Origin: an uncultured Spirochaetaceae bacterium
GTDB lineage: Bacteria > Spirochaetota > Spirochaetia > SZUA-6 > RPPD01
Assembly: GCA_964419695.1 (NCBI GenBank)
Contig: CAYQRT010000002.1
Location: forward strand, 1-29,725
DNA: 29,725 nt
Direction: 5' to 3'
Under the pieces are notes generated by a model. The model was not told the DNA's origin, made no database searches, and worked only from the letters and a program-made list of their open reading frames with translations. Position 1 is the stretch's first letter; each line of letters starts with the position of its first letter. This document shows positions 2,167 to 27,692 of the stretch, in pieces. The position numbers and the translations under genes were made by a program.

Positions 2167-2844
2167 CTAGGGTGCGTAGTAGAAGGGGCCGTTGAGCACC
2201 CCATAGTAGACGTCCGGCTGTTTGGCGTATACGTAATACGTGAACCCCCCGGACAGCCGCTCCTGATTGCGTGAGATGATGGCGGCAACCTCTATTGATT
2301 TTTTGGGCAAAGGGAGCCTGGCCATAAACTGGTCATTGGAGTCATAGACCCATATTTCCGGGCTTGGGAAATTACCCTCCACAAAGAGTTGGGAACCGTC
2401 AAGACGCGGCACGGGAAAACGGGCATTGGACGTCTCCACGTTCGCTTTTTTGATGTAGATCTGTGATGCCACTTTTTTTCCGCTCAGGTCCTCAAGCACC
2501 ACCCGGTAGGAACCTGCGGGCAGAGACTGACCGTAGGGCATGGCAAACCCGCTCGATCCCACCCATTCGCTGTTGCGGATCACGGCTTTCTCCCATTTTT
2601 CCGCCGGCACAGACCAGTAGATCTCCTGGTCGTCATTGATCACATGGAGGAAGCCCAGATCTTTGGCGCCGTCCTTGTCGCTGGCGGCCACGTAGAGCGA
2701 TAATTTCTGGTAGGTGGCGTTCAGCAATTTATTGTGGAAGAGGATCACCTGCCATTCGATGCCGCTCATCTGCGGCGGGTTATCCGAGCAGGACAAAAGC
2801 AGGAGGGGCAGGCAGACGGCGAAAGTCAGGCGAAATCTGCTCAT
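2167..2844 (-). CDS. Hypothetical lipoprotein
   Basis: Basic N-terminus, hydrophobic stretch and lipobox LLLSC at Cys19; ATGA overlap with the hisC stop. Confidence 0.75.
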   Translation of the reverse strand: MSRFRLTFAVCLPLLLLSCSDNPPQMSGIEWQVILFHNKLLNATYQKLSLYVAASDKDGAKDLGFLHVINDDQEIYWSVPAEKWEKAVIRNSEWVGSSGFAMPYGQSLPAGSYRVVLEDLSGKKVASQIYIKKANVETSNARFPVPRLDGSQLFVEGNFPSPEIWVYDSNDQFMARLPLPKKSIEVAAIISRNQERLSGGFTYYVYAKQPDVYYGVLNGPFYYAP

Positions 2845-4093: not shown

Positions 4094-5341
4094 ATGATGA
4101 GAAGAATACCCTATTATGTTATACCCTGTCTGGCGTCGCTCCTCTTGGTGGTAAGCCCCTTGGCCGCTCAAACGGAAACCACCGACATTTTCGCGCCCTT
4201 CGTGTCGCGGTTGAGCGTAAATGCGGACACCACGCGCGTCTTCCTTTCCTGGAAAAATTCAGAGGATCTTGCCGGGTTCAAACGCATATACCGGTCCTCC
4301 TCCGAGATCACCGATGCCACTTTCGCCAACGCCTCCCTGATCGCGCGGGTGGCGCCGGAAGTCGAGTCGTACATCGACACGCCGCCCGCGGGGCGGCGTT
4401 TCTTCTACGCGGTCATTGTGGAAGATAAAAATGGGGAACCGTATAATGTTTTCATCCCCTACCGCAACAAAACGATCGCCGGCGTGCGCCTCGAGGAAAA
4501 AGTGGCGGAACGGGACACGGCCGCCACCGTTACGGGGCTGGACGCCTCGGTGGCCGACGGAACTGTCACCCTGCGGTTCACCACCTCCAATCCCGGCAGG
4601 GAACTCATGCTCTACCGAAGCACCTCGCCCATCACCGGCTACCAGGACCTGACCCAGGCTTCGTATTCGATCATCCTGCCCGCGGGCACGGTGCGCACCA
4701 CCGACATGCCGCTGGCCGGCGTCGAATATTATTACGCGGTAGTGGACGCCGACATGTTGAATGCGGGAAAAGCCGTGTTCACCCCCGGGGAGAACGCCAC
4801 GGCGCAATCGGTTCACATCCCCCTGATGGAGGGAATCGCCAGGACGGAAACCATCCCGCCCCGCATCTATCCCCTGCCCGCCCCCCATATTCTCTACGCC
4901 CTGGATACGGGCAAGGAACTGCTCCCCCCCCTGCCGTTTCTGCTTCCTCCCACCATGCGTCTTCCACCGTCCGTGGAGGAAAAAGTGGACCGGATCGCGG
5001 CGCACATCCGGCACCATGAGGCCGTATTGAAATTCGAACTGCTGCCGTTTGACGAGGGCCCGAACCTGGAAGGGGAAGACGCCGCGCTGCAAACCATCGC
5101 CGTGGCCGCGGGCACGGGCGACTACAAGGCCTCGGCTGAAAGCCTGAACCACTTCTTGAGCACCCGGCATTCCCCCGCCACCGAAGCCCGGGCGCGGTTT
5201 TATCTGGGACAGGCATATTACCTGCGCGGCCAATACCGCGAGGCGCTGAAGGAGTTCGTGTTCGCCAATGCCGCCTTCTACGTGGAAACGCAGCCATGGA
5301 TCGACGCCTGTCTGGAAAAGCTGTACACCAGGAACAAGTAG
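4094..5341 (+). CDS. Secreted protein with two FN3-like beta repeats, a Pro-rich linker and a C-terminal TPR
   Basis: Signal peptide (…SPLAA/Q); two repeats of pattern L.W/F…IYRS..IT…D.P..G..Y/FYAV; TPR-like ARFYLGQAYYLRGQYREALKEF. Confidence 0.75.
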   Translation: MMRRIPYYVIPCLASLLLVVSPLAAQTETTDIFAPFVSRLSVNADTTRVFLSWKNSEDLAGFKRIYRSSSEITDATFANASLIARVAPEVESYIDTPPAGRRFFYAVIVEDKNGEPYNVFIPYRNKTIAGVRLEEKVAERDTAATVTGLDASVADGTVTLRFTTSNPGRELMLYRSTSPITGYQDLTQASYSIILPAGTVRTTDMPLAGVEYYYAVVDADMLNAGKAVFTPGENATAQSVHIPLMEGIARTETIPPRIYPLPAPHILYALDTGKELLPPLPFLLPPTMRLPPSVEEKVDRIAAHIRHHEAVLKFELLPFDEGPNLEGEDAALQTIAVAAGTGDYKASAESLNHFLSTRHSPATEARARFYLGQAYYLRGQYREALKEFVFANAAFYVETQPWIDACLEKLYTRNK

Positions 5342-5407: not shown

Positions 5408-7414
5408 TTACGTTTTCTGAAATGACAACTCCACCGCGCCTTCCCAGGATTCCTGCGGCTCCAGCTGCAGTTCCCAGTAGGGCAGGAGGCATATCCCCTG
5501 AAATTGGTCCTTTCCCTTGCCGTTGACACGCGCGTGAGTAAACAACGCGTGCGAAAAGAGCGAGCACGGCTTGATGGCTGAAAGTTCCACGGTCACCGCG
5601 TTCACCTTATCTTCAATCGACACCTTTTTTACATTGACCCGTTTGCCGCGGGCCGCTTCGATTTCAACCAGCGTCTTTTTGGAGGCGTCGAAGAGGCGGA
5701 GGTTTTCCTTCAGGGGCGAGATGAACGACAGGTTGAGCTCCGTGCCGAAGAGGAAGGATGTTTTTTTCTCGCTGATATTGCAGACCTGAAACCCGACGAC
5801 CACGGCGTTCTTCTTGAACACGTATTGTTTTTCCATCATCACCGCCATCTTGCCGCGGCGTCCGTCCAGCAGGCCCTGGTACGTAAACGAAATCTGCCGC
5901 TGCTCACGCTTCACTTCCTTGAGGTCGTAAGCGGCGCCGGGACAGGGACAAAGTTCCTGAATGTAGTCGGAAAGAAAACGCGCGTCGGAGGTTTTTTTCA
6001 AGCGGAAAAAATGTTCAATGAACGTTTTCCGGGGATAGGCGTCCTCCTCGTACTGCCCGTCCCGATGATATCGTTCACGGATGCGCGACATACTGTCGCA
6101 ATAGTTCCAGGAGACCGGCAGGTAATCGATTTCAAACGCCATGCCGTTCTGACGGTGCAGGTAAACGTTCATGTCGCTGGACTGGTAGAGATGTTCCGGT
6201 TCGCCGTCGAAATCGAAATCGGAGGAAATGATGGACGAAAGAAACGATCCCTTGAGCCGGGTGTATTTTTCCGCATTGATGAAACTTCGGTAGATTTCCT
6301 TGCGCAGGGCGTTGTCATAGATACCCAAGTGCCGGCCGTGCCAGTACCCGTAATGGCATTGCCCCTTCCACAACTCCTCCAAGGCGCTTTTCTTGCGGGA
6401 TTTGTCGCCCCGCAGCTGGTGGACGGTCAGGTGGGTATACATCATCTTGGCGTAGAGCAGGGAACTCTCCCTGTATTTGGTGAAGACTTGTTTGAAGTTA
6501 GAGCCGGAACCATCGTAATCCCGTCCCGTTTTCCCCCCGTTACCGTCCCGCCGGTAGGCGGAGGGCGGCATGGTGGCGCGGTAGACGGCCGGTGAAAACG
6601 TGCCCGGAAAAAAGGCCCGCCGCGTCACCAGGCGCGATTTCAGGTATTCCTGGGGAACGATCGGAAGGATCGTGTCCCGGGTATCCTGCAGGCGGGCAAA
6701 AAACTCCTTGAGCCAGTTTTGATGGCGCCACCGGCTGGAAAGCACCAGTTGACGTGTGTAGCAGTCGCCGTCGATCAGGAGGGAAACGACGCGATCGCCG
6801 TCGGGGGAAGCCTGCTTTTTCAGGAACGCGATCACGTCCCGTGGATTTTTGGTAAACAGAAGCTCCTTGAGACGCATGGCCAGGGGAAAGACGATGATGT
6901 TTTTACCCAGCTCCTCGGTAATATGCGGATAATAGATGTCTTCCGCCCGGCAGTGCGCCTGCCGGAAAGCACCGTCGTTGAGAAAGGTGTATTCGATGCC
7001 GCAGGAGCGGAGAATATGCGGCAGGGAAGACTCCCAGATCTGTCCCGGGAGCCAGGCGCCGCGGGGACGCTTGCCGAAATGCGACCGCAGATAAGTGGTG
7101 AAGAGCTCGATCTGGCCGATCTTGTCGATGGGCGGCACCAGCGGCAGGACCGGATCATAGTATCCGCCCCCCACCAGCTCCACCTGTTTGCGCTTCATCA
7201 TTTCATCCAGCAAATTCAGGTATTCAGGGTGATTTTTCTCCAGAAAGCCCAGGACGATGCCCGAATAATGCAGGGTCACGGGCAGGTGTTCGATTTCGTA
7301 GAGGGTACTTAAAAAGTGCTTGTACGTATCCTGATACACGGCTTCGAATTCATGGTCGCTGAATCCCAAAGGCGCGTGCCAATGCACCCCGAACATGAGG
7401 TGGATTGTTTTCAT
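5408..7414 (-). CDS. GH57 family alpha-amylase/4-alpha-glucanotransferase-like protein; catalytic nucleophile apparently missing
   Basis: HWHAP (CSR-1), LHYSG, VELVGGGYYDPVLP, GAWLPGQIWE, MLAKM-like region, GQCHYGYWHG, DFDFDGEPE; 668 aa fits the three-domain architecture. Confidence 0.88.
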   Translation of the reverse strand: MKTIHLMFGVHWHAPLGFSDHEFEAVYQDTYKHFLSTLYEIEHLPVTLHYSGIVLGFLEKNHPEYLNLLDEMMKRKQVELVGGGYYDPVLPLVPPIDKIGQIELFTTYLRSHFGKRPRGAWLPGQIWESSLPHILRSCGIEYTFLNDGAFRQAHCRAEDIYYPHITEELGKNIIVFPLAMRLKELLFTKNPRDVIAFLKKQASPDGDRVVSLLIDGDCYTRQLVLSSRWRHQNWLKEFFARLQDTRDTILPIVPQEYLKSRLVTRRAFFPGTFSPAVYRATMPPSAYRRDGNGGKTGRDYDGSGSNFKQVFTKYRESSLLYAKMMYTHLTVHQLRGDKSRKKSALEELWKGQCHYGYWHGRHLGIYDNALRKEIYRSFINAEKYTRLKGSFLSSIISSDFDFDGEPEHLYQSSDMNVYLHRQNGMAFEIDYLPVSWNYCDSMSRIRERYHRDGQYEEDAYPRKTFIEHFFRLKKTSDARFLSDYIQELCPCPGAAYDLKEVKREQRQISFTYQGLLDGRRGKMAVMMEKQYVFKKNAVVVGFQVCNISEKKTSFLFGTELNLSFISPLKENLRLFDASKKTLVEIEAARGKRVNVKKVSIEDKVNAVTVELSAIKPCSLFSHALFTHARVNGKGKDQFQGICLLPYWELQLEPQESWEGAVELSFQKT

Positions 7415-7676: not shown

Positions 7677-8489
7677 TCAGTTGGGAATAATGCAGCGCGG
7701 CGGACATTTTTTCTCCGCCGGCCGGCGATCACCCCGGGCCTGGTAGTCGATCGTGGAAAGGTAATCCGTCACCAGAAAGCCGCCCTCGGGCGAACGTTTC
7801 TCGCATAGTTTACACCCGGTGCAACCCACAGTGCAAGCGTTTTTTGTGGCCGCGCCCGAGTCGTGCGAATTGCAGGCCACGATGACGTCGGCGGATTTGG
7901 GAATGAACCGCATGACTTTGGTGGGACAGACTTCAATACACTTGCCGCAGGCGATGCACCGTTCTTTGTCCACCCAGACCAGACCCTGTTCGTCGTAGGC
8001 GATGCAATCCACGGGACAGACCTTGATGCAGCTGCCTTGTCCCAGGCACCCGTATTTACAGATCTTGTCGCCGCCGCCCAGCAGATACAGAGCCGTACAA
8101 TCCCTGAGTCCCGAATAGACGAAAGCATAGCGGGCGGTGCCCCGGCCGCCGCGGCAATGGACCTGCGTCACCGGCCGGTCCTGGGAATAAGACATTTCCC
8201 GTCCCAGGATGGACGCCAGTTTTGCGGCGGTCTGTTCGCCGCCCGGCGTGCACAGGTCGATGGCCGCACCGGCGTCCTTGACAGCCTTGGCGTAGGCGGC
8301 GCAGCCCGCGTAGCCGCAGGCGCCGCAATTGAGCTGCGGCAGGGCCGCTTCCACTTCCTCCAGCTGTTTATCGCGGGCCACGTGCAGGTAGCGGGAGGCT
8401 ATGGACAGTAGCAGTCCGAACACGACGCCCAAGCCGCTGACCGCAAGCAGTGAGGAAAGGGTTGAAAAAAAAGCGTCCCATGCAGTCAT
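7677..8489 (-). CDS. rnfB: Rnf complex subunit B (polyferredoxin)
   Basis: N-terminal TM helix, LPQLNCGACGYAGC, CTPGG, CKYGCLGQGSCIKVCP, CIACGKCIEVCP. ATG at 8489 preferred over the track's TTG at 8495. Confidence 0.93.
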   Translation of the reverse strand: MTAWDAFFSTLSSLLAVSGLGVVFGLLLSIASRYLHVARDKQLEEVEAALPQLNCGACGYAGCAAYAKAVKDAGAAIDLCTPGGEQTAAKLASILGREMSYSQDRPVTQVHCRGGRGTARYAFVYSGLRDCTALYLLGGGDKICKYGCLGQGSCIKVCPVDCIAYDEQGLVWVDKERCIACGKCIEVCPTKVMRFIPKSADVIVACNSHDSGAATKNACTVGCTGCKLCEKRSPEGGFLVTDYLSTIDYQARGDRRPAEKKCPPRCIIPN

Positions 8490-8498
8490 ATGCAATGC

Positions 8499-9089
8499 CT
8501 ACCCGAATATATTCTTTAAAATGGCCATATCAAAGGCCATAAAAGCCAGGGCCATCAATCCGGCGCTGATAAAGGCGATGGGCGCCCCGCGCAGGGCCTT
8601 GGGCACCTTGACCCGGTCGAGTTTTTCCCGGATGGATGACATGAGGATGATGGCCAGGGTAAAGCCCAGGCCGGCGGCGAATCCGGCCACCACGCTCTGG
8701 AGAATGCTGTATTCATTGTTCACGCAGATGAACGCGATGCCCAATACGGCGCAGTTGGTGGTGATCAGCGGCAGGTAGATGCCGAGCGCCTTGTATAATT
8801 CGGGCGAAATCTTGCGTATCACCATTTCCACGAACTGGACCAGAGCGGCAATGACGAGAATGAAGGTAATAATCTCAAGATACTCGATGTTGAGTGGATC
8901 GAGAATTTGTGTGTAGATGACCGAGGTAAAGAACGAGGACAGGGTCATGACAAACACCACGGCGAACCCCATGCCGACGGCGGAATCCATTTTTTTAGAA
9001 ACACCTATGAAGGGACATAACCCCAGGAACTGGGTGAAGATGAAATTATTGATGAACACGAAGGTGATGATGATGCCCACGTAGCTCAT
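8499..9089 (-). CDS. rnfA: Rnf complex subunit A
   Basis: FLGLCPFIGVSKK, LGIYLPLITTNCAVLG. Confidence 0.96.
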   Translation of the reverse strand: MSYVGIIITFVFINNFIFTQFLGLCPFIGVSKKMDSAVGMGFAVVFVMTLSSFFTSVIYTQILDPLNIEYLEIITFILVIAALVQFVEMVIRKISPELYKALGIYLPLITTNCAVLGIAFICVNNEYSILQSVVAGFAAGLGFTLAIILMSSIREKLDRVKVPKALRGAPIAFISAGLMALAFMAFDMAILKNIFG

Positions 9090-9793
9090 GAGGTCTTCTC
9101 CCTTCCCGCGGACGATCGCCTCCGCCCGGACAATAATGAAGCCAACGCGCGGATATCGGAGGAGACGCGCCGGCGGATGGACCCCGCCGCGTTAAACAGT
9201 CCCTTGAGAAAGCCGATGACGAGCAGGGCGCCGGCCGGCGCGGCCAGGACGGCGACGGGCGCCTGGGACAAACCCGGAATTTCCAGAATACCGTCCTCCA
9301 GTCCGGGGATGGGCAGGGGCACCAGGGTCAGGGTGCCGGCCCCCAGCGTTTCCCGAATGAAGGCGATCAGGCACAAGGCCAGGGTAAACCCCAGACTCAT
9401 GCCCAGGGCGTCCAGAACCGAGGGGCCCACGGCGTTCTTGCTGGCGAAGGCCTCGGCCCGACCGATGATGATGCAGTTGACCACCACCAATGGCAGGAAG
9501 ACGCCCAGGTTTTTGGCCAAGGCCGGAGTGAAGGCCTGCATGAGGAGATTGATGATGGTGACGAAAGCCGCGATGACTATGATGAAGGCCGGTATACGCA
9601 CCTTGTCGGGAATGAAATTCTTCAGCAATGAAACCACGATGTTCGATCCCAGAAGCACGAACGTAACCGCCGCTCCCATACCCAGGGCATTGATGAACTG
9701 GTTGGAGACCGCCAGCGTGGGACAAAGGCCGAGCATGATGATAAAGGTGGGATTTTCCTTGAAAATTCCCCTGGTAAAGTCCTTGAGCATCAT
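9086..9793 (-). CDS. rnfE: Rnf complex subunit E
   Basis: ENPTF..MLGLCPTLAVS, IPDKVRIP, LPLVVVNCIIIGRAEAFASKN. Confidence 0.96.
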   Translation of the reverse strand: MMLKDFTRGIFKENPTFIIMLGLCPTLAVSNQFINALGMGAAVTFVLLGSNIVVSLLKNFIPDKVRIPAFIIVIAAFVTIINLLMQAFTPALAKNLGVFLPLVVVNCIIIGRAEAFASKNAVGPSVLDALGMSLGFTLALCLIAFIRETLGAGTLTLVPLPIPGLEDGILEIPGLSQAPVAVLAAPAGALLVIGFLKGLFNAAGSIRRRVSSDIRALASLLSGRRRSSAGREKTS

Positions 9794-10551
9794 TCGCCTC
9801 CTTGGGCCATGACAAAGAGCGACCCTTCCTTGATCGCGGCCGCCACCGCCATAAAACTGATGCTGGCGCCGCTCACCGCGTCCGCCGATTTCCTGGAGAG
9901 CATGGCTTTGACCACGGGTACGCGGGCGCCGCGGGTGCCGCGGAAGTGGCGGTCATAATCCGGCGCTGAAATCATTTTGGTCTGCGCGGGGCTTTCCTCG
10001 GCGTGCAGCACCCGAAACGACCGTACGGTTCCGTCCGGTTCGTACGCGGCCACGATATCGATCTCTCCACCGTATCCCGAACCGGCCAACTCCAGGATGT
10101 ACCCGGAGATGGTTCCCCCGGATCGCAGGATATACCAGGCACGCACCTTATCCTTGCGTCCCCGATCGGTTTTCGCAAACACGCGGGAGAGCTGGCGGGC
10201 ATCATCCGGGGAGAAATCCGGGGCCAGGGCATGCGTGCCGCCGGTTTCAGGATAGTACCGCTCCAGGATCGAGCGGTCCGCAGCGGTGAGGCGCGGATTG
10301 TTCAGCAGCGCGTCCCAGGCAGTTTGTTCCAGCCGCAACGGAAAAGCCGCTTCACCCTGGCTGCGCACGGCATTACCGGACAGTTCGGCCAGGGCCTTGT
10401 TCTTCTCCCGCAATTTGTTTTCCTCGATCACGGGTGCGGTAATCAGGTTGACCAGGGCCAGAGCCAGAGCCACCCCGGCGCAGATGACCACGAGTCTGGC
10501 CACCGGTACGAGCAATTCCCGGATGGCTGGGGCGTCAAGCAGTTTTTTCAT
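9790..10551 (-). CDS. rnfG: Rnf complex subunit G (FMN-binding) with an internal insertion
   Basis: N-terminal TM (LALVNLITAPVIEEN), GSGYGGEI, DAVSGASIS flavinylation motif; position between rnfD and rnfE. Confidence 0.88.
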   Translation of the reverse strand: MKKLLDAPAIRELLVPVARLVVICAGVALALALVNLITAPVIEENKLREKNKALAELSGNAVRSQGEAAFPLRLEQTAWDALLNNPRLTAADRSILERYYPETGGTHALAPDFSPDDARQLSRVFAKTDRGRKDKVRAWYILRSGGTISGYILELAGSGYGGEIDIVAAYEPDGTVRSFRVLHAEESPAQTKMISAPDYDRHFRGTRGARVPVVKAMLSRKSADAVSGASISFMAVAAAIKEGSLFVMAQGGE

Positions 10552-11701
10552 GCTTCTTCCCTATGACCGCGCCGAAAATCTTAGGTTTTATGAAACGATC
10601 CATGAGCGGTACGAACATGTTCATAATGATGATGGACAACGAGACCCCTTCCGGAAGCGAACCGTAAAACCGAATGAGAAAGGTCAGCACGCCGGCCCCC
10701 ACGCCGAAGATGATCTTCCCCGTCCGGGAGAGGGGCGTGGTCACGTAGTCGGTGGCCATGAAAAACGCGCCGAATACGATTCCGCCGGTCAGAAGATGAA
10801 AGAAGACGTCGCCGGAAAACAGGCCGGAAGCGAAGCGCAGGCCGCCGAAAACCCAGACAAGTAGGGCGAAGCTTCCCAGGTAAGCGGCGGGGATTTCCCA
10901 AGAAATGATTTTCCTGATAAAGAGGAATAACGCCCCCAGCAGCAGCAGCAGCACCGACACTTCCCCGATGGAACCGGCCACGTTGCCGACCAGAAGGTCG
11001 ACGTAGCCCCTGGGCAGATGGCCGCCCAACAGGCCGTTCAGACCCTGCGTCACCTGGGAGTCGAATGCGGAGACAGGGTAGTGTTTAGACGCCAGCAGGG
11101 AAAGCGGGCCGCCCAAACCGTGCAGACGTGCGGAAAGAACGGACGGATCCCCGGCCTGGACGGCGACTTCCGCCAGACCGGCCTTGACTGTGCCCAGGGG
11201 AGAAGCACCGGTGACCGCGTCCGCCGCCGCCCCGGCTGCCCCCCAGGCGGGAAGCGTGGTCGGCATGGTCCAGGCGTTCATGGCCTTGGAAAAAGAAAAA
11301 AGGGCGAACACCCGGCCGGCCAGGGCCGGATTCATCCAGTTGGCGCCCAGGCCGCCGAAAGCGTGCTTAACCACGGCCAGGGCGAACACCGACGCGGCGA
11401 TGGGTACATAGACCGGAACGGCCGGCGGCAGGTTCAAACCGATGAGCAATCCGGTGAGAAAGGCGGAACCGTCCGTAATGGTGAGTTTACGGCGGACGGC
11501 ATTAACGGTGAGTTCGGTGGCCAGGGAGGCGCCGATGCAGATGAGGACGGTGATCAAGGCCTGCCAGCCGAACACGAACACGCCCCAGGCCAGGGCGGGC
11601 GTCAGACTTAAGGATACCGACCACATTATCGTGGCCGCGCGCGTGCCTTCGGCCAGATGCGGGGCGGGGGTGACCAGGAGGGGTCTCTTGGCCCGGTTCA
11701 T
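10535..11701 (-). CDS. rnfD: Rnf complex subunit D
   Basis: PAPHL, ITDGSAFLTGLL, KHAFGGLGANWMNPALAGR, GNVAGSIGE, GAFFMATDYVTTP. Start set to ATG 11701 (ATGA overlap with the rnfC stop), not 11815. Confidence 0.95.
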   Translation of the reverse strand: MNRAKRPLLVTPAPHLAEGTRAATIMWSVSLSLTPALAWGVFVFGWQALITVLICIGASLATELTVNAVRRKLTITDGSAFLTGLLIGLNLPPAVPVYVPIAASVFALAVVKHAFGGLGANWMNPALAGRVFALFSFSKAMNAWTMPTTLPAWGAAGAAADAVTGASPLGTVKAGLAEVAVQAGDPSVLSARLHGLGGPLSLLASKHYPVSAFDSQVTQGLNGLLGGHLPRGYVDLLVGNVAGSIGEVSVLLLLLGALFLFIRKIISWEIPAAYLGSFALLVWVFGGLRFASGLFSGDVFFHLLTGGIVFGAFFMATDYVTTPLSRTGKIIFGVGAGVLTFLIRFYGSLPEGVSLSIIIMNMFVPLMDRFIKPKIFGAVIGKKHEKTA

Positions 11702-13038
11702 GGGGCGGCCTTTCCCGACTGACGGAGGCGGGCCATGATCTTTCCCACTTTGAAGGAATGTACCAGGGGAATACGCGAGGGACAGACATAGGCGCAGCAG
11801 CCGCACTCCTTGCAATCCATGAGCCCTGATTGGAGGGCCTTCTCATACAGCCCGTATTCGATGAGGGTGAAGAGGATCGTGGGCAGGAGGCCCCAGGGGC
11901 AGACGTGTAGACAACGGCCGCAGCGGATGCAGGGCGTCCCTGCGTAGGGGGCGGTCTCTTTGCGCGAGAGGGCGACGATGCCCGATACGCCCTTGACCAG
12001 CGGCGTCTCCGGATCAGCCACGGCCAGCCCCATCATGGGTCCGCCTAAAACTATCTTGGCGGGCGGCTCGGAAAAACCGCCGCAATCCTCCAGCAGTTCG
12101 CCGATCTTGGTACCGATACGCGCCTTGATATTGGAGGGCTGGTGCAGCGCGCCTCCGGTGACCGTCACCACTCTTTCAATAAGCGGTTTGCGCCAGACCA
12201 CGGCCTCATACACCGCCAAGACGGTATGGACATTGGCCACCACCGCGCCCACGTCGAGCGGCAGCCCGCCGGAGGGCACCTCACGGTTGAGCACGGCCTT
12301 GAGAACCATCTTTTCATCACCCTGGGGATAACGCACCCGGAGGGACGTCACCGTAAAGGGCAGCTGTTTCTCCGTGATTTTTTCCGTGAGCACCTCGATG
12401 GCGTCCGGTTTGTTCTCCTCCACCGCGAATACGACCCGGTCGGCGCCCGTGATTTTTTGGATGATCTGCGCTCCCTCGACGATTTCATCCGGTTTCTCCA
12501 GCATCAACCGATGGTCGACCGTGAGGAAGGGCTCACATTCCACGCCGTTGATCACCAGCACCCCGATGGGTTTTTCACGACGTACCGTGTACTTGACGTG
12601 GGCGGGAAACGCCGCGCCGCCCAGACCCACCACACCCATATCGGCGATCAGCCCATTGAGCGTCTGGCCGTCCATGTTCTCCCAGGCCTGTTTTTCCAGG
12701 ATCTTCCCCGAGCGGTCGAATTCACCGGCGCATTCAATGGTGACCGCCCGGCAGACCACTCCCTGGGGAAGCATCATGTTTTTGACTTCCTTGACGCGAC
12801 CCGGTACCGGAGAGTGGATGTTGGCCGAAATGAATCCGGAGGCCCGGGCGATGAGCATTCCTTCCTTTACTTCGTCTCCGGGATTGACGAGACATTGCGC
12901 CGGTGCGCCCGTGTGCTGGGACAGGGGGATGACGGCCACCGCCGGGATATGAGCGTTTTTAATGGGCATCCGGGAAGTCCCTTCTTTTCTGTCGCGGGGA
13001 TGCACCCCTCCCCGACCGAATGTGCGGGAACCGTTCAT
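11698..13038 (-). CDS. rnfC: Rnf complex subunit C
   Basis: PLSQHTGAPA, HSPVPG, GVVGLGGAAFPAHVK, NGVECEPFLT, YPQGDEK, GGPMMG, CIRCGRCLHVCP, CKECGCCAYVCPS. Confidence 0.97.
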   Translation of the reverse strand: MNGSRTFGRGGVHPRDRKEGTSRMPIKNAHIPAVAVIPLSQHTGAPAQCLVNPGDEVKEGMLIARASGFISANIHSPVPGRVKEVKNMMLPQGVVCRAVTIECAGEFDRSGKILEKQAWENMDGQTLNGLIADMGVVGLGGAAFPAHVKYTVRREKPIGVLVINGVECEPFLTVDHRLMLEKPDEIVEGAQIIQKITGADRVVFAVEENKPDAIEVLTEKITEKQLPFTVTSLRVRYPQGDEKMVLKAVLNREVPSGGLPLDVGAVVANVHTVLAVYEAVVWRKPLIERVVTVTGGALHQPSNIKARIGTKIGELLEDCGGFSEPPAKIVLGGPMMGLAVADPETPLVKGVSGIVALSRKETAPYAGTPCIRCGRCLHVCPWGLLPTILFTLIEYGLYEKALQSGLMDCKECGCCAYVCPSRIPLVHSFKVGKIMARLRQSGKAAP

Positions 13039-14816
13039 GGCTTTCTCCCGGATGTTTTCTTTCTCTTCTGCACGCCTGCCTTCTTTGCGCCCCTGGATTT
13101 GGCTGGAGCCGCGGCACCCCGGCTCTTTGTGCGGCCGGACGTTTTCTTCTCCGCCGGTTTCCGCGCGGCGGGCGCCCGCGCCGGGACGGACGTGGTGATC
13201 GGCCTTTTTTTCCTGCCGTAAATCAAGCTGGGGAGTGCCGTGTACTCAAGCAGAATTACCGGACAGAGTACGATACTAAAGATGATGATGATTGTCCAGT
13301 TGGCCTGCGCCAGCGCGCCCGCCGGATCACCGTTGCGAAACGATACGGACAGACATTTTCCCTGGTCGAACAGCATTCGTTCCACTGATGTCCGGCTGAC
13401 CCGTCGCGCCAGGTCGTCCAGCCATTGGTCGCCGAAGGCGATCAGCGTTTGGCGGCTCTCCTTCACCGTGATATCCGGCTCGTTCATGCGGTAGGCGGCG
13501 AGGACGATGGCGTCGTTCCGGCCGGGAAGAGCATATGCGGGCGGGGCTCCGTACGCCAGCCGCTCCTGGTACGCGGCATGGGTCACAAAATCCGAAAGAT
13601 CCGGCAGGTCTCCCGGACGCTTGACCGCCGCCAGCCGTCGGACCGCCCCCAGGGTGATGCCTTGTTCCGCGGTACGGGCTTCAGGCACCGGCATACGCGT
13701 GTTCCTTACCTGCGGTTTAAAAAGGAGAACCGCCGGCATGAGGACGAGCAGGCCCACGGCCGCGGAAGGCGCCAGGCGCTGGCTGAACGTCCGGGCGGTT
13801 TTGGGGGCAAAGGAACGCAGAATGGTCAGGGGTTTGAATCGTGCCGGCCTTTCCAGTATGCTTCGTTCCTTGAGCAGGCGGAACAGCCGCAGGATTCCCC
13901 AATGGGCCGCCAGCAGTCCGCCCTGGGCCAACAGGGCCAGGGTGATTTCAAGCAGGTCCGATTTGAAAAGCGAGGTAAAAAAGAACGTCAGCAGAAGGAC
14001 CCCCGTATAGAGAACAAGACGAAGCCAGAGCGGTTTACGGTCCGAATCTTTCCAACCGGACAGTTCCCGGTTTTCCACGAAGTCCTGGTAGACATTAAGG
14101 AACCTTGCCCAATAGTAGCTTAAGAAAAAAAACAGGAGGAACTCCCCTATCCCACCCCTGGTCAACGCCAGCATCCAGGGGAGGACCCCCGCCCCGAACA
14201 GGATGTGAAAAGTCGTTTTACGCGATGCGAACATCAACGCCAAGAAAAAGAGCGCTCCGGCCGCGGCAATGATCACCGTGGTCTCATTGTTGTCGAGCTC
14301 GAGAATCCGCCAATTATCTTCGCGCTTTCCCGCCCAGTCCGTCATGAACAGCGAAAGCGACAGGGGATTGCGCCGGGTAGCCACATACAGGACATCCCAG
14401 GTTACGTTGTTTTCTTTCACCGTGAAATACTCATCCACGCGACGCATATAGTCGTCCCAACGGGGATCGCGAGGATCGAATCGTTCACTCACCCGTGATA
14501 GAGGCAGTGGCATGAGTGAATCAAAATTCGTATAGAGAATGTCAGCGGTCGCCCGTGAAATCACGGTTTCCACGTCCGGCTGCCGGAGCAGGGCGTCCGA
14601 CAGTTCCGCCAGGGGCCGGGGTCCCCGATAGTAAACGGTGTGGTAGCCTTTGAACCGGGAGGGTTTGGCGGAGGGCACGGCGAACAACAAATTGCCGCCC
14701 AACAACACGGCTACGCCTATCATGACCGCCGTGCGCATGACAGCGACCGGTTTTCTCTCGGGAGATTTTTTTCGTTTTTTCGCGGGGAGTGACTTCACGG
14801 GCGTGCTAGAGGACAC
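13035..14816 (-). CDS. Unknown polytopic membrane protein (about 8 TM segments, two soluble domains, Lys/Arg/Ala-rich tail)
   Basis: Long ORF overlapping the DUF212 stop and the rnfC start (ATGA); multiple hydrophobic segments. Start uncertain (GTG 14816 or ATG 14738). Confidence 0.8.
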   Translation of the reverse strand: MSSSTPVKSLPAKKRKKSPERKPVAVMRTAVMIGVAVLLGGNLLFAVPSAKPSRFKGYHTVYYRGPRPLAELSDALLRQPDVETVISRATADILYTNFDSLMPLPLSRVSERFDPRDPRWDDYMRRVDEYFTVKENNVTWDVLYVATRRNPLSLSLFMTDWAGKREDNWRILELDNNETTVIIAAAGALFFLALMFASRKTTFHILFGAGVLPWMLALTRGGIGEFLLFFFLSYYWARFLNVYQDFVENRELSGWKDSDRKPLWLRLVLYTGVLLLTFFFTSLFKSDLLEITLALLAQGGLLAAHWGILRLFRLLKERSILERPARFKPLTILRSFAPKTARTFSQRLAPSAAVGLLVLMPAVLLFKPQVRNTRMPVPEARTAEQGITLGAVRRLAAVKRPGDLPDLSDFVTHAAYQERLAYGAPPAYALPGRNDAIVLAAYRMNEPDITVKESRQTLIAFGDQWLDDLARRVSRTSVERMLFDQGKCLSVSFRNGDPAGALAQANWTIIIIFSIVLCPVILLEYTALPSLIYGRKKRPITTSVPARAPAARKPAEKKTSGRTKSRGAAAPAKSRGAKKAGVQKRKKTSGRKP

Positions 14817-15270
14817 AGAAGGCCACGGCGATAAAGAAGCCTAGTACCGCTCCCACGCCCACCTCGGAAATGCTGTGTCCGTTGATCTCCTTCACTGGTT
14901 TGATATTAAGGCGCCTTTCTTTCTTGAGCAGGGAGATCAGCCGGTTGAGCGTATGGGCCTGGATGCCGGCCGCGCGTCTGACGCCCAGGGCGTCGCGAAT
15001 GACCAGCAGGGCGTAAAAGAACACGACAATGAACAGCGGGTCGCCGACGCCCCTGGTCAAGGCGATGGACGTAGCCAGGGAGGACACCACCGACGAATGG
15101 CTGCTGGGCATGCCGCCGGTGGTCCAGAATATGTATTTCAGGATTTTTAAGGCGCTTCTGGGTTTATTTCTGATGATCTCAATGATCGATTTCATGACTT
15201 GGGCCAGGAACCAGCTGAACACGGTCGCCAGAAACACCGGGCTCGTCACCAAAGCATTTATATGATCCAT
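14806..15270 (-). CDS. Divergent PAP2 family (DUF212) membrane phosphatase/haloperoxidase-like protein
   Basis: WFLAQVMK, TGGMPSSHSSVV, DALGVRRAAG, GHSISEVGVGAVLG. Start moved to ATG 15270 (MDHIN…). Confidence 0.88.
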   Translation of the reverse strand: MDHINALVTSPVFLATVFSWFLAQVMKSIIEIIRNKPRSALKILKYIFWTTGGMPSSHSSVVSSLATSIALTRGVGDPLFIVVFFYALLVIRDALGVRRAAGIQAHTLNRLISLLKKERRLNIKPVKEINGHSISEVGVGAVLGFFIAVAFCVL

Positions 15271-15537
15271 AGCGCCTGTCTTTGCAATGATAATGATATG
15301 CCGTTCGGCGGGAGCATCCCCGGGATGTCTACCGCCGAAGGTCATATGGCCCCGGGCCGCTTTCTGAAAATGGCCAACGCCAGGCCGCCTGGCGCCTTTT
15401 TTCCGAAACCGTGTCCAGTTTCGCTTGAGTCGCCCAAATTGTCAAGACGTTCACGCCGGGGTGACGATTTCAGGAAGCGATTTCCAAGCGAGGCCGGAAA
15501 ACAGAGTATTGAGTGCGCCATTATTTTGTTTTTTTTA

Positions 15538-17951: not shown

Positions 17952-18933
17952 TCCCCTGGTCGCGGGACCGGGAGACGACGGCAAGCGTCTGGACCGGGTG
18001 ATCCGCCGGGCCTTGCCCGCTCTGCCCCTGAGCGGCCTTTACCGGCTGATCCGTTCCGGACATATTCTGATAAACGGTCGAAGAGCCCGGAATGATACCC
18101 GGATCCGCACGGGTGACCGTATCCTGGTCGACGCCCCCATCATCACCACACCGCGTCCGAAACATGACGTTGCCCACCCGGACGCGGCGCGGCGCCTGAA
18201 AAAGATCGAATTGTTTTGTAATACTGACATTTTGGCGCTGAACAAGCCTTACGGTGTGCTCGTTCACGGAAACGATTCACTCGATCACCGGGTGAAAACA
18301 GTCCATGGGGAGGCCGCGGCCGCTTCCCTGTCATTTATGCCCGGCCCGGCCCACCGCTTGGACCGCAACACAACGGGTATCATTTTATTCAGCTTGAGCG
18401 TCACCGGAGCCCGGCTCATCACGGCCCAATTCAGGGAACATCGCGTAAAAAAAATATACTGTGCGCTCGTGGACGGGCATGTATCTGAAGCGTCCGTGTG
18501 GCGGGACCGTCTCACCCGCGACCGAACACATAGAAAAACTATTGCCGCGTCTGATAAGGCGGACGGACCGGCCCTGGACGCCGAAACCGTCGTGGTCCCC
18601 CTGTTTTCAGATAGAAAGGCGACACTCGTTCTGTTAGTACCCCATACCGGACGCACGCACCAATTGCGTGCCCAGGCCGCCCTGCACGGCCATTCCCTGT
18701 CGGGTGACGCCAAGTACGGCGGGTCTTCCGCGTCACGCTATCTGCTCCACCATACGGCCCTGTCGGTGGAAAACGGGGAACTCGGCCTTCCCGCATTGCT
18801 CGCCCCGTTCGACCAGTATGCGGATCACGAAATCCTGTCCCGCTTTGGTAAAGACGCGGTCGGCGAGGTATACCGGCGAGCGCGAAGCCTTTTGCCGGAG
18901 GGCGGTGCCGTATTTCCGCCGCCGCTCCCTTGA
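17935..18933 (+). CDS. RluA-family (RluC/RluD-like) pseudouridine synthase with an S4 domain
   Basis: GKRLDRVIRR, LNKPYGVLVH, HRLDRNTTG (catalytic Asp), TGRTHQLRAQ, GDAKYG. Confidence 0.93.
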   Translation: MAIKNDPLVAGPGDDGKRLDRVIRRALPALPLSGLYRLIRSGHILINGRRARNDTRIRTGDRILVDAPIITTPRPKHDVAHPDAARRLKKIELFCNTDILALNKPYGVLVHGNDSLDHRVKTVHGEAAAASLSFMPGPAHRLDRNTTGIILFSLSVTGARLITAQFREHRVKKIYCALVDGHVSEASVWRDRLTRDRTHRKTIAASDKADGPALDAETVVVPLFSDRKATLVLLVPHTGRTHQLRAQAALHGHSLSGDAKYGGSSASRYLLHHTALSVENGELGLPALLAPFDQYADHEILSRFGKDAVGEVYRRARSLLPEGGAVFPPPLP

Positions 18934-18957
18934 CTTGGCCGCCGTTCACTGTATACT
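18930..18957 (+). promoter_or_regulatory. Sigma70 promoter overlapping the pseudouridine synthase stop codon
   Basis: TTGACT-16 nt-TATACT. Confidence 0.6.
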
Positions 18958-18985
18958 TTTGGAGGGAGACAAAGCCGCACGGATC

Positions 18986-19858
18986 ATGAATATTATTGCC
19001 AACGCCTTTCGTCATCTTATCTGGGTACTGCGCGGCGTCCAGGTCTTCGCCCTGATCGGGCGCAGCGGTACGGGAAAAAGTTTCCGTTCTCTGCTTCTGG
19101 CCCAAAAATACAGCATCGAATTGATTGTGGACGACGGACTGCTCATCCGGGATCAAAGGATCCTGGCGGGCCGGTCATCCAAACGGGAAAAAGCCTACCT
19201 GTCCGCCATCAAGACCGCCCTGTTCACGGACGACCTCCAACGCCGCGAGGCGCTCCAGGTGTTGAAGCGGGAAAAATTCAAGCGGATCCTTCTTTTGGGA
19301 ACCTCCCTGGGCATGGTTACCCGCATCGCCCGCAGGCTGGAACTGCCCGCTCCCACGCGTGTCTTCACCATAGAAGACATTTCCACCGAAGAAGAAATCA
19401 AGCAGGCCATGAAGGCGCGCAAGACCGAGGGCAAGCACATCATTCCCGTGCCGGCTTTGGAGGTGAAGCGCAATTATCCCCATTTGATTTATGAGACGAT
19501 AAAGATTTTCTTCACCAGGCGTTTTTTCCGCACGGAAAAGCAGAAGATGTTTGAAAAGACCGTGGTCCGCCCCGAATTCACCCAACGCGGCCGTCTGGAG
19601 ATTTCCGAAATCGCATTAGGTCAGATGGTCCTGCACTGTGTCAGTGAATACAACCCCATCCTCAAGATTGAGAAAATCCAGGTCAAACGCGAGTTGGAAG
19701 GGTTCCAGATGACTCTGAACCTGCGTGTTCCTTACGGCGTCGAGTTGAGCCGGTCCATCGCCGATCTGCAAAAATATATAATCGAAAATATTGAAAGTTA
19801 TTCCGGGATAAGGCTTTTCAAGGTCGATATACTTATCTCAAAGATCGAACGGCACTGA
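18986..19858 (+). CDS. P-loop NTPase-like protein with a probable C-terminal Asp23/Gls24-like domain
   Basis: VFALIGRSGTGKS, IVDDGLLI, AGRSSKRE, HIIPVP..EV, EKTVVRP.F..GRLEISE. Start set to ATG 18986 rather than 18668. Confidence 0.78.
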   Translation: MNIIANAFRHLIWVLRGVQVFALIGRSGTGKSFRSLLLAQKYSIELIVDDGLLIRDQRILAGRSSKREKAYLSAIKTALFTDDLQRREALQVLKREKFKRILLLGTSLGMVTRIARRLELPAPTRVFTIEDISTEEEIKQAMKARKTEGKHIIPVPALEVKRNYPHLIYETIKIFFTRRFFRTEKQKMFEKTVVRPEFTQRGRLEISEIALGQMVLHCVSEYNPILKIEKIQVKRELEGFQMTLNLRVPYGVELSRSIADLQKYIIENIESYSGIRLFKVDILISKIERH

Positions 19859-25553: not shown

Positions 25554-26564
25554 TCAACAGATTCGCGGCAGCATGTCCGCCAGCAGCATGTCCACAATGC
25601 GCGTGCCGCCCGCCCGGGTCTTAAGGAAAACGCGGCAGAGGGGATCATCGGTCACGGTGCCTATGATATCGGCGCGGGCGCCCAGTTCCTGATTCCGCAT
25701 TGTCTCCAGCACGTCCGCGGCCACGCCCTGCTCGCAAACCACGATTACCTTGCCTTCATTGGCCAGATAGAGCGGATCAAATCCGGTCAACTCGCAGATG
25801 GCCCTCACCTCGTCCCGCACCGGCAGCGCTTCTTCCTCAATTTCCAACGACAACCGGGAACCTTGAGCCAACTCCACCAGGGTGGTGGCCACACCGCCGC
25901 GGGTGGGATCGCGCATCACCCTGATCGATCCCGGCGGAAAATGATCTACAATCCTTTTTATCAGGGGCCAGAGCGGGGCGCAGTCGCTCTGCACGTCGAA
26001 ATCGATGGGGAAATCCCCGCGCGCCTTCATGACCGCGGCGGCGTGGTCTCCCAGGGTGCCGGAGATAATTACGGCGTCGCCGCTCTTCATGGCCAGCGGT
26101 GAGAGACCCGCGTGCGCCCCCGGAAAGCCCACGCCGGCGGTGGTGATGAAGATTCCGTCCGCCTGCCCCCGGGGCACCACTTTGGTATCCCCGGTAACCA
26201 CCGTCACGCCCGTTTCTCCGGCCGTTCGCGCCAGGGAAGAGACGATCGTCTTCAGGTCTCTGAGGGAAAACCCCTCTTCGATGATGAATCCGGCGGAGAG
26301 ATACCGCGGTTCCGCGGCGCAGACCGACAGGTCATTGACTGTTCCCGCCGCGGAAAGTTTTCCGATATCCCCTCCCGGGAAAAAGACGGGACGGATCACG
26401 TACCCGTCGGTGGTAAAAGCCAGCTTTCCACCGCGGCTTTCCACCAGGGCGCTGTCCAGGAGGTCGGACAGGGAGCGATTGTCGAACGCGGGCACGAAGA
26501 CTTCCTCCACCAGCCGGTGGGTGGCGGAGCCGCCATTGCCGTGTTCGAGTTTTATGATGTCCAT
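25554..26564 (-). CDS. hypE: Hydrogenase maturation carbamoyl dehydratase HypE
   Basis: HGNGG, FTTDGYV..P.FFPGGDIGKL, GTVNDL, GDTKVV, MRDPTRGG, DPLYLANEG, C-terminal PRIC. Start set to ATG 26564 (AGGAAGG RBS). Confidence 0.96.
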   Translation of the reverse strand: MDIIKLEHGNGGSATHRLVEEVFVPAFDNRSLSDLLDSALVESRGGKLAFTTDGYVIRPVFFPGGDIGKLSAAGTVNDLSVCAAEPRYLSAGFIIEEGFSLRDLKTIVSSLARTAGETGVTVVTGDTKVVPRGQADGIFITTAGVGFPGAHAGLSPLAMKSGDAVIISGTLGDHAAAVMKARGDFPIDFDVQSDCAPLWPLIKRIVDHFPPGSIRVMRDPTRGGVATTLVELAQGSRLSLEIEEEALPVRDEVRAICELTGFDPLYLANEGKVIVVCEQGVAADVLETMRNQELGARADIIGTVTDDPLCRVFLKTRAGGTRIVDMLLADMLPRIC

Positions 26565-26721
26565 ACCTTCCTGCATAACGCCTGCCTTCTTAAGGGATAG
26601 TGTCCGGGGCCGGACTGCGGGGGGCCCGCTCTCCCGCCTCCCCCGCGCGCCGCCGATGACCGCCCCAGTATGCTTGCGTGTTCCGGTTGTCAAGCTTAAG
26701 GTGCAGGGAGGGTCGAGCCGT

Positions 26722-27651
26722 TCATGTCCCCTCAATCACGACCAGTCCGCCCAGACGGCGTGGATCGATTTCCACGGTGCGTACCAGCGCCTTCAGCTGG
26801 GCCAGCGGAAAGGCGGCGTCTTTGACGAACTCGCCGCCGATCTGCCAGAAGGGGCTTTCCTTAACGATCCAGCGAATGACGGCGCAGAACACCAGGGAGC
26901 TCTTTATTCCCCCCACCGATTCGATGCTGATGGAGATGATCTCCCCTTTGTCCAGGTGATCCTTCTCCAACAAGAGGAGTTTCATGCCCTCGGTCGAAAT
27001 GTCGACCAGGTACGCGTCCACCGAATTATTAATGATCACCTTGGTAAAGATGCTGTGCCTCTGATCCCTGTTCACGAAGGCGGCCTGAGCGCCGGCGCCG
27101 TCCGTCCGTCCCCCCCCGTCGGCGTCCAGCCGTTTGGCCGCCGTTATCCTGGTGCCGCACACGCTGCCTTCTCCCTGCCAGACGGTCTCTCGGCCGTCCC
27201 GGTCTATGAAGACCAAATGGAAGGCGTCCAGCGCCATTTTGGCCGAAACCAATCCAATGCCGAAACGGTTATAGGCGTGGCGTTCACGGTACGCTTGAAA
27301 TTCGGCCGAGGTAATATCGATTTTTTCCGAATCGTCATTGATATTTATCGGTAGTTTCCCCAGATCGAATCCCCCGGCCTGATCCGTGACCACGATCTTC
27401 AAGTAATTCCCCTTGACCGACAATTCGACGATCACCTGCTGCTCCACCAGGCGCTCATGGAGCGCCCTGACCGAATTGGTCACCAGCTCCGTCAGGGCGT
27501 ACTTGAGCAGGATGTTTTCCGATTCCTTGACCGGAAAATCAACCAGCTCAAGAATCTTGAAAAAATCGGCTCCATTAAGCCGGGGTGAGAAATGGATGCT
27601 CAGGTTCTGATAGCAATTGCCTTTGTAGACGATGTAATTCATATGATCCAC
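26722..27651 (-). CDS. HATPase_c (RsbW/anti-sigma kinase-like) domain fused to a C-terminal PilZ-like domain
   Basis: N-box ELVTNS, G1 DQAGGFD, G2 RFGIGL; then RDQR…LVDISTEG and VIRW…IGGEF. Start GTG 27651 or ATG 27642. Confidence 0.78.
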   Translation of the reverse strand: MDHMNYIVYKGNCYQNLSIHFSPRLNGADFFKILELVDFPVKESENILLKYALTELVTNSVRALHERLVEQQVIVELSVKGNYLKIVVTDQAGGFDLGKLPININDDSEKIDITSAEFQAYRERHAYNRFGIGLVSAKMALDAFHLVFIDRDGRETVWQGEGSVCGTRITAAKRLDADGGGRTDGAGAQAAFVNRDQRHSIFTKVIINNSVDAYLVDISTEGMKLLLLEKDHLDKGEIISISIESVGGIKSSLVFCAVIRWIVKESPFWQIGGEFVKDAAFPLAQLKALVRTVEIDPRRLGGLVVIEGT

Positions 27652-27656
27652 AGTGA

Positions 27657-27678
27657 AGTATAGTGATAAATTTCAAAA
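27657..27678 (-). promoter_or_regulatory. -10 box (TATACT) overlapped by a Rex/Crp-Fnr-like palindrome
   Basis: Plus 27661-27678 TAGTGATAAATTTCAAAA; minus-strand TATACT at 27657-27662. Confidence 0.4.
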
Positions 27679-27692
27679 TGAAAAGGACGATT

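Follow-up and report, generated by a model that had tools for sequence, protein, structure and literature searches.

Rnf is a central energy-conserving pump of anaerobes. In a stretch of 29,725 nucleotides from an uncultured Spirochaetaceae bacterium (contig CAYQRT010000002.1, positions 1 to 29,725; hereafter the window), the open reading frame (ORF) immediately 5′ of rnfC encodes a polytopic membrane protein, here called ORF-X. A reading of this DNA from the sequence alone, made earlier by a model (hereafter the sequence-only reading), had found the protein to be unrecognised. ORF-X is a genuine gene, and its product belongs to a large family of inner-membrane proteins that has had no name; this gene family is new, class-wide and tied to the Rnf cluster, and one of its domains has no known fold. 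Tentatively, we favour for it a role as a membrane partner of RnfC and RnfD. Here, we describe the gene, its family and its place in the genome, then the predicted structure of the protein, and weigh this role against the alternatives.

The ORF-X gene, its family and its place beside rnfC

ORF-X lies on the minus strand at 13035..14816, where a six-frame reading gives 593 amino acids from a GTG codon at 14816 to a TGA stop codon at 13035-13037. The frame claimed earlier is real, and its strand, which had not been given, is minus: the plus-strand frame over 13035-14816 is riddled with stops, so that there is no ORF there. Chance can be excluded because the frame is conserved, with matches in 37 of the 41 genomes of the window's order searched in six frames and in 1042 cluster representatives (clusters at 50% identity) found at E ≤ 1e-3 when a profile of 23 members was searched against 1.84 billion proteins. 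The public gene call is shorter, 567 amino acids from an ATG at 14736..14738 (first nucleotide 14738), which corresponds to M27. The GTG codon sits 11 nucleotides inside the end of the upstream DUF212 gene, no clear Shine-Dalgarno site was found by eye at either start, and relatives of the same genus have long basic N-terminal extensions starting with ATG. The basic N-terminus described in the sequence-only reading depends on this choice: residues 1-26 (14739..14816, minus strand), predicted to be cytoplasmic, include eight lysine or arginine residues if GTG is used, and they are absent from the 567-residue form, since the ATG call begins at M27.

The protein remains without a recognised family. 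No model of Pfam or NCBIfam matches the window protein, a Pfam scan of 23 aligned relatives recognised no family, NCBIfam gave no match for seven further members, and sequence searches of the PDB with profiles of the whole family and of its two soluble domains (PD1 and PD2, described below) gave nothing below E 0.036. Matches to Rnf or Nqr families were likewise absent, both in Pfam at E ≤ 1 for the 23 members and in Pfam and NCBIfam for the window protein. A confident match to a characterised family unrelated to Rnf, the outcome that the sequence-only reading had named as contrary to it, was looked for and did not appear. The top score in the ESM Atlas, 0.75, belonged to an unnamed spirochaete cluster and offered no lead. 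No description of the family was found in the literature on bb0070/bb0071/bb0072, Borrelia RnfC/RnfD, Treponema denticola Rnf and spirochete rnfC, a search that covered journals other than subscription journals.

The size of the family emerges only from the six-frame searches of genomes and from the profile search. A word-indexed protein search returned just two non-self relatives, with 88% and 48% identity, and a search with an eight-row alignment led to six related loci, all of them in metagenome-assembled genomes of uncultured Spirochaetales or Spirochaetaceae. Of the 1042 representatives found with the 23-member profile, 383 match at E ≤ 1e-30, and most are 500-580 amino acids long. The best match to the profile is the window protein (E 4.6e-179), which belongs to the family by its full-length match together with the motifs D-P-R-x-D and P...H-x-x-x-Q; 11 columns are invariant across the 23-member alignment, and all are present in the window protein by definition, as it is one of the aligned set. 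A sample drawn from the whole phylum gave an ORF-X match in 17 of 201 genomes, all 17 in the window's own class, and none of the 173 genomes from other classes of the spirochaete phylum does; in a class-wide sample, a match was found in 99 of 151 genomes. Two distant members are letter-identical to "hypothetical protein" records of Borrelia hermsii and Treponema denticola, the former being the ORF-X of a small genome (G213). The member in Borrelia burgdorferi may be bb0071. In one transposon-sequencing table, a bb0071 mutant is listed as not recovered from larval ticks (PMC6516651).

The tie between ORF-X and rnf proposed in the sequence-only reading holds as a genetic linkage. On the minus strand of the window stand, in this order, a DUF212 gene (divergent PAP2 family; 14806..15345), which heads the cluster directly upstream of ORF-X, then ORF-X, rnfC (11698..13038; TIGR01945, 509 bits), rnfD, rnfG, rnfE, rnfA and rnfB (7677..11815, by family matches) and a GH57 glycoside hydrolase gene (5408..7414), which closes the conserved cluster; Mla and RluD genes are divergent from it, on the plus strand. 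The stop codon of ORF-X and the start codon of rnfC share four nucleotides, ATGA (13035..13038, minus strand), and a 4-nucleotide overlap of ORF-X with rnfC or an rnfC-like gene also occurs in two other loci (L035 and L036), so that it is seen in three distant lineages. Within the window's order, rnfC directly follows ORF-X in 18 of 20 loci. Among the 99 ORF-X genomes of the class sample, the listed rnfC place is directly downstream on the same strand in 72; since 49 rnfC places were absent from this listing, the 23 remaining genomes with any rnfC match were all rechecked, and 17 more were found to have an rnfC-like gene directly downstream, which brings the total to 89 of 99. The ten exceptions are the four genomes of a family called f7 here and the genomes G233, G362, G354, G272, G345 and G264, some of whose loci are on short contigs. 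Adjacency to rnfC is tighter than adjacency to DUF212, which is directly upstream on the same strand in at least 54 of the 99 genomes (the listing left out 11 DUF212 places). In no fewer than ten genomes, the canonical rnfC is at another site and ORF-X adjoins a divergent rnfC-like copy that scores below the family cut-off; among them is the genome whose ORF-X is identical to the T. denticola record. The ATGA overlap and the adjacency in 89 of 99 genomes are what an accessory subunit encoded in the operon would display at the level of genes. A promoter and terminator scan gave nothing usable within the operon; among the public sequencing runs, no RNA run was listed, and the DNA runs contained at most 0.20 of the sampled words.

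The contents of the cluster vary between lineages. In L035, a divergent RluD gene is followed by DUF212, ORF-X, rnfC-like and rnfD-like genes, three small ORFs and GH57. In L036, the locus of G213, the order is M29 peptidase, DUF212, ORF-X, an RnfC-RnfD fusion, a 189-amino-acid ORF without a family match, a release factor gene and a PEGA-domain gene. The fusion is a 772-amino-acid ORF (L036:5008-7326) whose N-terminal part resembles RnfC (RnfC_N, Complex1_51K) and whose membrane part resembles RnfD, and no 4Fe-4S domain matches it at E ≤ 1e-3. Two loci of another family have reduced clusters, one consisting of ORF-X, RnfC and GH57 (L019) and the other of ORF-X, RnfC, RnfD and GH57 (L020). Two further loci (L017 and L026) lack a tblastn match for RnfG and RnfB, and two of the window's genus (L009 and L010) lack one for RnfB, whereas the window has rnfB.

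Predicted topology, domains and ends of ORF-X

A full-length AlphaFold2 model of ORF-X (mean predicted local distance difference test score, pLDDT, 75.3; predicted template-modelling score 0.65) contains eight helices, at residues 19-46, 177-195, 201-219, 223-251, 261-284, 288-322, 344-365 and 498-526, together with an α/β domain at about 56-174 (PD1), another at about 372-497 (PD2) and two disordered ends. Every one of the eight hydrophobic segments listed from the sequence is a helix in the model; a Kyte-Doolittle scan at 1.5 caught six of them. Read along the minus strand, the protein is composed of the first transmembrane (TM) helix, TM1 (residues 27-47; 14676..14738), PD1 (48-176; 14289..14675), a membrane core of TM2 to TM7 (177-365; 13722..14288), PD2 (366-497; 13326..13721) and TM8 (498-527; 13236..13325), TM1 and TM8 being supported by both hydropathy and the model. 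TM1 is taken as a signal-anchor helix, but it could also be a cleaved signal peptide.

Conservation and charge were evaluated on an alignment of 147 sequences of 430-760 amino acids, the window protein and 146 other members taken from the representatives of the profile search and the two relatives from the word search. The median net charges are +2 for the N-terminus, +1 for the TM2-TM3 loop, +5 for the TM6-TM7 loop and +4 for the C-terminal tail, as against -2 for PD1 and -1 for PD2. By the positive-inside rule, these charges assign the basic loop and the two termini to the cytoplasm and the two soluble domains to the periplasm. Thus, ORF-X is predicted to be an N-in/C-in protein with eight TM helices, of which PD1 (pLDDT about 90) and PD2 protrude into the periplasm. 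With this topology, the two soluble domains noted in the sequence-only reading could not meet a cytoplasmic ferredoxin.

Both motifs picked out from the sequence are present and conserved in the 147 members. The one in PD1, RFDPRDPRWDDYM...YF (residues 112-131; 14424..14483, minus strand), includes D117 (identical in 100% of members), P118 (98%), R119 (97%), D121 (98%) and F131 (97%); the one in PD2, LPDLSDFVTHAAYQE (residues 404-418; 13563..13607, minus strand), includes P405 (97%), H413 (100%) and Q417 (95%), and W465, further along in PD2, is identical in 95% or more. D117 and H413 are thus the same in 147 of 147 sequences. Positions conserved at 85% or above are R112, D117, P118, R119, D121, F131 and Y144 in PD1, and P376, P378, P405, H413, A415, Q417, P431, W465, L482 and Q485 in PD2; position 55 of PD1 is tryptophan in 88% of members and phenylalanine in the window. 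Outside the two domains only W214 in TM3, the sole such position within a helix of the membrane core, and F327 in the cytoplasmic loop reach this level. F327 belongs to a conserved H/P324-x-x-F327-x-P329 in the basic TM6-TM7 loop (residues 311-343; 13788..13886, minus strand). Nowhere in the TM helices is a charged residue conserved at 70% or above. The flavinylation motif is S/T-G-A-S/T. By eye, neither a motif of this type nor an Fe-S or haem motif is found in ORF-X, which holds two cysteines, none in CxxC or CxxCH and none among the conserved positions; the earlier statement that Fe-S, haem and FMN motifs are absent is borne out.

The very basic ends need to be distinguished from this conserved core. 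Residues 531-593 of the window protein include 22 lysine or arginine residues and a single acidic one, as had been noted, and the whole Lys/Arg/Ala/Pro-rich tail (residues 528-593; 13038..13235, minus strand) has a net charge of +21 and is disordered in the model. This length, however, is found only here and in the 88% relative, and the tail is not a feature of the family: a C-terminal tail of at least 40 amino acids occurs in 10 of the 147 members and an N-terminal extension of at least 25 in 14, the median lengths being 20 and 12 amino acids. In the window protein and its 88% relative the very basic end is C-terminal (+21), and in the 48% relative (P0004, +22) and seven representatives (P0005, P0019, P0049, P0064, P0082, P0102 and P0121) it is N-terminal, with charges of +14 to +22. 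The appearance of a basic disordered extension at either end suggests selection for a basic cytoplasmic tail in those lineages. As few members carry them, the long tails are recurrent, lineage-specific cytoplasmic appendages rather than part of the family core, and the idea that they form the core of the mechanism fails, most of the 147 members having none.

Comparisons of fold gave weak matches. VIA-align, applied to 48,161 chains, finds the ferredoxin-like sandwich of PD1 in HMA domains (Z 7.0-7.4) and in MmpL11-D2 (4y0l; Z 6.6), and a second comparison finds it in the periplasmic region of MacB (3ftj; Z 6.1) and in FtsX (8tzk; Z 6.0). With MacB, FtsX and proteins of the RND superfamily such as MmpL11, ORF-X shares a ferredoxin-like β-α-β sandwich placed directly after TM1. 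MacB and FtsX permeases have four TM helices and one periplasmic domain, and RND proteins twelve TM helices; ORF-X differs from them in its eight helices, in the lack of an ATPase partner in the operon and in the lack of charged TM conservation. No FtsX match in Pfam was found in the 23 members, and the only nearby ABC ATPase is that of the Mla cluster, which diverges on the plus strand. Moreover, the fold of PD1 is a common one, since HMA, CutA and S6-type domains score equally or better, all at Z < 8. With the full model, Foldseek found no match at E ≤ 0.001 and weak ones to RND, FtsX and Wzc proteins, mainly RND-superfamily transporters (best E 0.021, TM-scores about 0.2); in VIA-align, RND chains reach Z 5.6-5.8 with root-mean-square deviations of 6.1-10.5 Å, the membrane part resembles generic helix bundles, and nothing other than such bundles reaches Z 8 in either the wide or the second comparison. 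These matches may mean no more than a common arrangement. PD2 folds confidently when modelled alone (pLDDT 85.8) and is without a structural neighbour, its best scores being Z 4.1 among the 48,161 chains and E 0.71 in Foldseek; weak matches to the ectodomains of Patched, Dispatched and NPC1 have Z 2.2-3.6. An origin of PD1 and PD2 by internal duplication was rejected (hhalign probability 0.06%).

A possible partner of the Rnf module or an independent envelope protein

Does ORF-X work with the products of its neighbours, or does it merely stand beside them? We lean, with a confidence somewhat short of even, to the view that ORF-X serves the RnfC/RnfD module in the Rnf or Rnf-like pump of spirochaetes as a lineage-specific partner in the membrane. 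In favour of this view are the adjacency to rnfC, the retention of ORF-X beside divergent rnfC-like copies and in reduced clusters, the 4-nucleotide overlaps, the co-transcription reported for the homologous cluster of Treponema pallidum (PMC4436053), and the predicted topology with its placement of the conserved residues. Produced along with RnfC and RnfD, ORF-X would anchor, assemble or stabilise their module. On the cytoplasmic side, its conserved basic TM6-TM7 loop would lie towards RnfC, and PD1 and PD2 would sit on the periplasmic side, which is also the side of the flavin-bearing sites of RnfG and RnfD in solved Rnf complexes. It does not count among the core redox subunits, and not every Rnf needs it. 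Among the roles proposed in the sequence-only reading, namely scaffold, chaperone or transporter, a partner or scaffold role is still the best one, and a proton-driven transporter is disfavoured because no TM position is conserved as a charged residue.

A number of observations weigh against such a partnership. All four genomes of f7 keep ORF-X without an rnfC at E ≤ 1e-20; the gene stands there, in what is its ancestral position, between RluD and the genes for a release factor, a PEGA-domain protein and FtsY, with rnf and DUF212 missing from the place and the sole DUF212 match far off on the chromosome or on another contig. Conversely, 45 of the 140 rnfC-bearing genomes of the class sample have no ORF-X match, a 1.14-Mb genome (G134) has DUF212 directly before an rnfC-like gene and no ORF-X at E ≤ 1, and the genome of the window combines two rnfC genes with a single ORF-X match. 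The block of RluD, DUF212, ORF-X, rnf, GH57, release factor and PEGA genes is syntenic throughout the class, so that the adjacency of ORF-X and rnfC may partly be inherited order, and the sampled genomes are related, so that the counts do not represent independent events. The position of the conserved residues also counts against the partnership, as most of them are periplasmic while RnfC is the cytoplasmic subunit in solved Rnf complexes. Binding of ORF-X to Rnf subunits is something we infer from gene context; a complex prediction with RnfD (388 amino acids, 18-row alignment) and ORF-X residues 27-535 (18 rows) scored 0.00 in two runs, which speaks neither for nor against binding. The second rnfC is a full gene on another contig of the same genome (G000, contig C75:8708-10114; 534 bits including a neighbouring same-frame match), and the source organism probably carries two Rnf clusters.

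A rival explanation, which we regard as unlikely but serious, is that ORF-X is an Rnf-independent envelope protein that handles a periplasmic or membrane substrate with its two periplasmic domains and lies beside rnfC only through inherited operon order. It would account for f7, where ORF-X persists without rnfC, for the location of most of the top conserved residues in the periplasm and for the synteny, from G213 to f7, of the functionally unrelated RluD, GH57, release factor, PEGA and FtsY genes, and it is in keeping with the weak likeness of PD1 to porter-type periplasmic subdomains of MacB, FtsX and RND proteins and with the prevalence of RND-superfamily transporters among the weak full-length Foldseek matches. 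It does not explain well why rnfC or an rnfC-like gene is adjacent in 89 of 99 genomes as against 54 of 99 for DUF212, an adjacency that survives rearrangement and reduction of the cluster, nor why 4-nucleotide overlaps recur in three distant lineages; in addition, an ion-driven transporter would need conserved charged TM positions, an ABC-type one an ATPase that the operon does not encode, and every fold match is below Z 8. The RND resemblance could be taken more literally, with ORF-X as a truncated descendant of an RND-type transporter cut after TM8. RND proteins have twelve TM helices in two homologous halves, with conserved charged TM residues as a proton relay, and the modelled order TM1, periplasmic domain, TM2 to TM6, TM7, periplasmic domain, TM8 equals the first eight of them; the Foldseek rows (best E 0.021) and the faint PD2 matches to Patched, Dispatched and NPC1 (Z 2.2-3.6) point the same way. 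Such descent is nevertheless very improbable, given VIA-align values of only Z 5.6-5.8 at 6.1-10.5 Å, the absence of any RND match in Pfam in 23 members even at E ≤ 1, the lack of charged TM conservation and hence of anything like a proton relay, the absence of a detectable sequence relationship between PD1 and PD2, and eight helices instead of twelve.

Two other proposals start from the neighbouring gene and from the tails. ORF-X might act with the DUF212 protein in a periplasm-facing reaction of lipid- or polyprenyl-phosphate, ORF-X binding or transferring the substrate and DUF212 recycling the phosphate carrier; in 54 of 99 genomes, including G213, L035 and the window, the gene just before ORF-X is DUF212, and the acidic D-x-R-x-D motif of PD1 is reminiscent of acidic loop motifs in lipid-linked glycosyltransferases. 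We consider this improbable, because DUF212 is elsewhere or not found in 45 of the 99 genomes while ORF-X stays with rnfC, because G134 keeps DUF212 beside its rnfC-like gene without ORF-X, and because neither the best 49-50 rows of the fold searches contain a GT-C, WaaL or Wzy chain nor do the 23 members scanned have a Pfam match to such families. As a cytoplasm-facing scaffold or chaperone, in line with the sequence-only reading, ORF-X would have its soluble domains on the electron-input side of Rnf and would bind ferredoxin, nucleic acid or anionic lipid by its basic tails. The tails are indeed very basic (net +21 at the C-terminus) and predicted to be cytoplasmic, and a minority of relatives have similarly basic extensions (+22 at the N-terminus of P0004), yet most of the family is without them (medians of 20 amino acids at the C-terminus and 12 at the N-terminus), both folded domains are predicted to be periplasmic and no cofactor- or ferredoxin-binding motif was found; there is hardly any likelihood left for this role. 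Returning to the partnership with RnfC and RnfD, we also entertain, as a rather doubtful extension, that the three form the conserved core of a spirochaete-specific, Rnf-derived membrane machine in which ORF-X, with the unseen fold of PD2, would be the periplasm-facing subunit and would give the machine a different output, for example by coupling membrane ion or flavin chemistry to a periplasmic process. Such a machine would persist even in G213, whose ORF-X is identical to the B. hermsii record, and there it could hardly be a ferredoxin:NAD+ oxidoreductase, because no Fe-S domain is seen in the RnfC part of the fusion with RnfD.

Other genes of the window, known Rnf extras and significance

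The rnf cluster ends with a GH57 gene in 18 of the 20 loci of the order and also in the loci of G055 and G134 (L035 and L037), a conserved and unexplained association between a glycogen-type enzyme and an ion pump. Elsewhere in the window, the minus strand at 25554-29721 carries an AIR-synthase-related (HypE-like) gene, HypD and, at the edge, the C-terminal part of HypF; such hydrogenase maturation genes fit an anaerobe with ferredoxin-linked metabolism. Three sizeable putative ORFs have no Pfam match at 1e-5, at 2167-2844 (minus), 4094-5341 (plus) and 18668-19858 (plus), the last with a weak Asp23 match only (E 4e-4).

Additions to the six core subunits of Rnf have been described elsewhere: RnfH in Azotobacter vinelandii (PMC12174285) and the rnf-linked rseC of clostridia (PMC9124969). 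According to the latter article, the gene just before rnfC in several clostridia is rseC (RseC_MucC, PF04246), whose product is described as a putative regulator of small size; Clostridium ljungdahlii needs it for autotrophy that depends on Rnf, and no rseC was found in the spirochaete Treponema primitia (PMC9124969). ORF-X and RseC are alike in that each is a membrane protein outside the six core subunits whose gene is immediately 5′ of rnfC. ORF-X differs in having no PF04246 match, in either the window protein or the 23 members, and in its size and layout, 593 amino acids that are predicted to form eight TM helices and two domains in the periplasm. The possibility that ORF-X replaces RseC is weakened by an RseC_MucC homologue on contig C249 of the window's genome, and a role as flavin transferase was set aside in view of the normal ApbE that the genome encodes on contig C42. 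RnfH, in turn, is a cofactor-free cytoplasmic extra subunit of the Rnf1 complex of A. vinelandii (PMC12174285), and ORF-X would likewise be a lineage-specific, cofactor-free addition to the six-subunit core, although it is polytopic with periplasmic domains and no sequence relationship between them was found. In that review on Rnf and Nqr, published in 2025, the strings "spiroch" and "Treponema" have 0 occurrences (PMC12174285).

In spirochaetes, the closest described system is that of Treponema pallidum, where tp0147-tp0153 were stated to be co-transcribed by reverse transcription PCR (data not shown there) and were called a noncanonical Rnf (PMC4436053). This is the same syntenic cluster as in G134, with DUF212, rnfC-like and rnfD-like genes, three small membrane ORFs, GH57 and a divergent RluD, and we infer that G134 belongs to the T. 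pallidum group. The cluster of G134 has lost ORF-X (no match at E ≤ 1) and can therefore exist without it.

If the partnership with RnfC and RnfD is true, a class-wide seventh gene with a periplasmic module of its own would change the picture of the spirochaete Rnf complex. ORF-X could then help to explain the noncanonical Rnf, which has been proposed as the driver of energy metabolism in pathogenic treponemes (PMC4436053). The family extends into pathogens, as seen from the records of Borrelia hermsii and Treponema denticola, which are annotated merely as hypothetical proteins, and PD2, which has a confident model and no structural neighbour, is a good target for structure determination. Even if ORF-X is independent of Rnf, it still represents a large, conserved family of spirochaete envelope proteins that has had no name.

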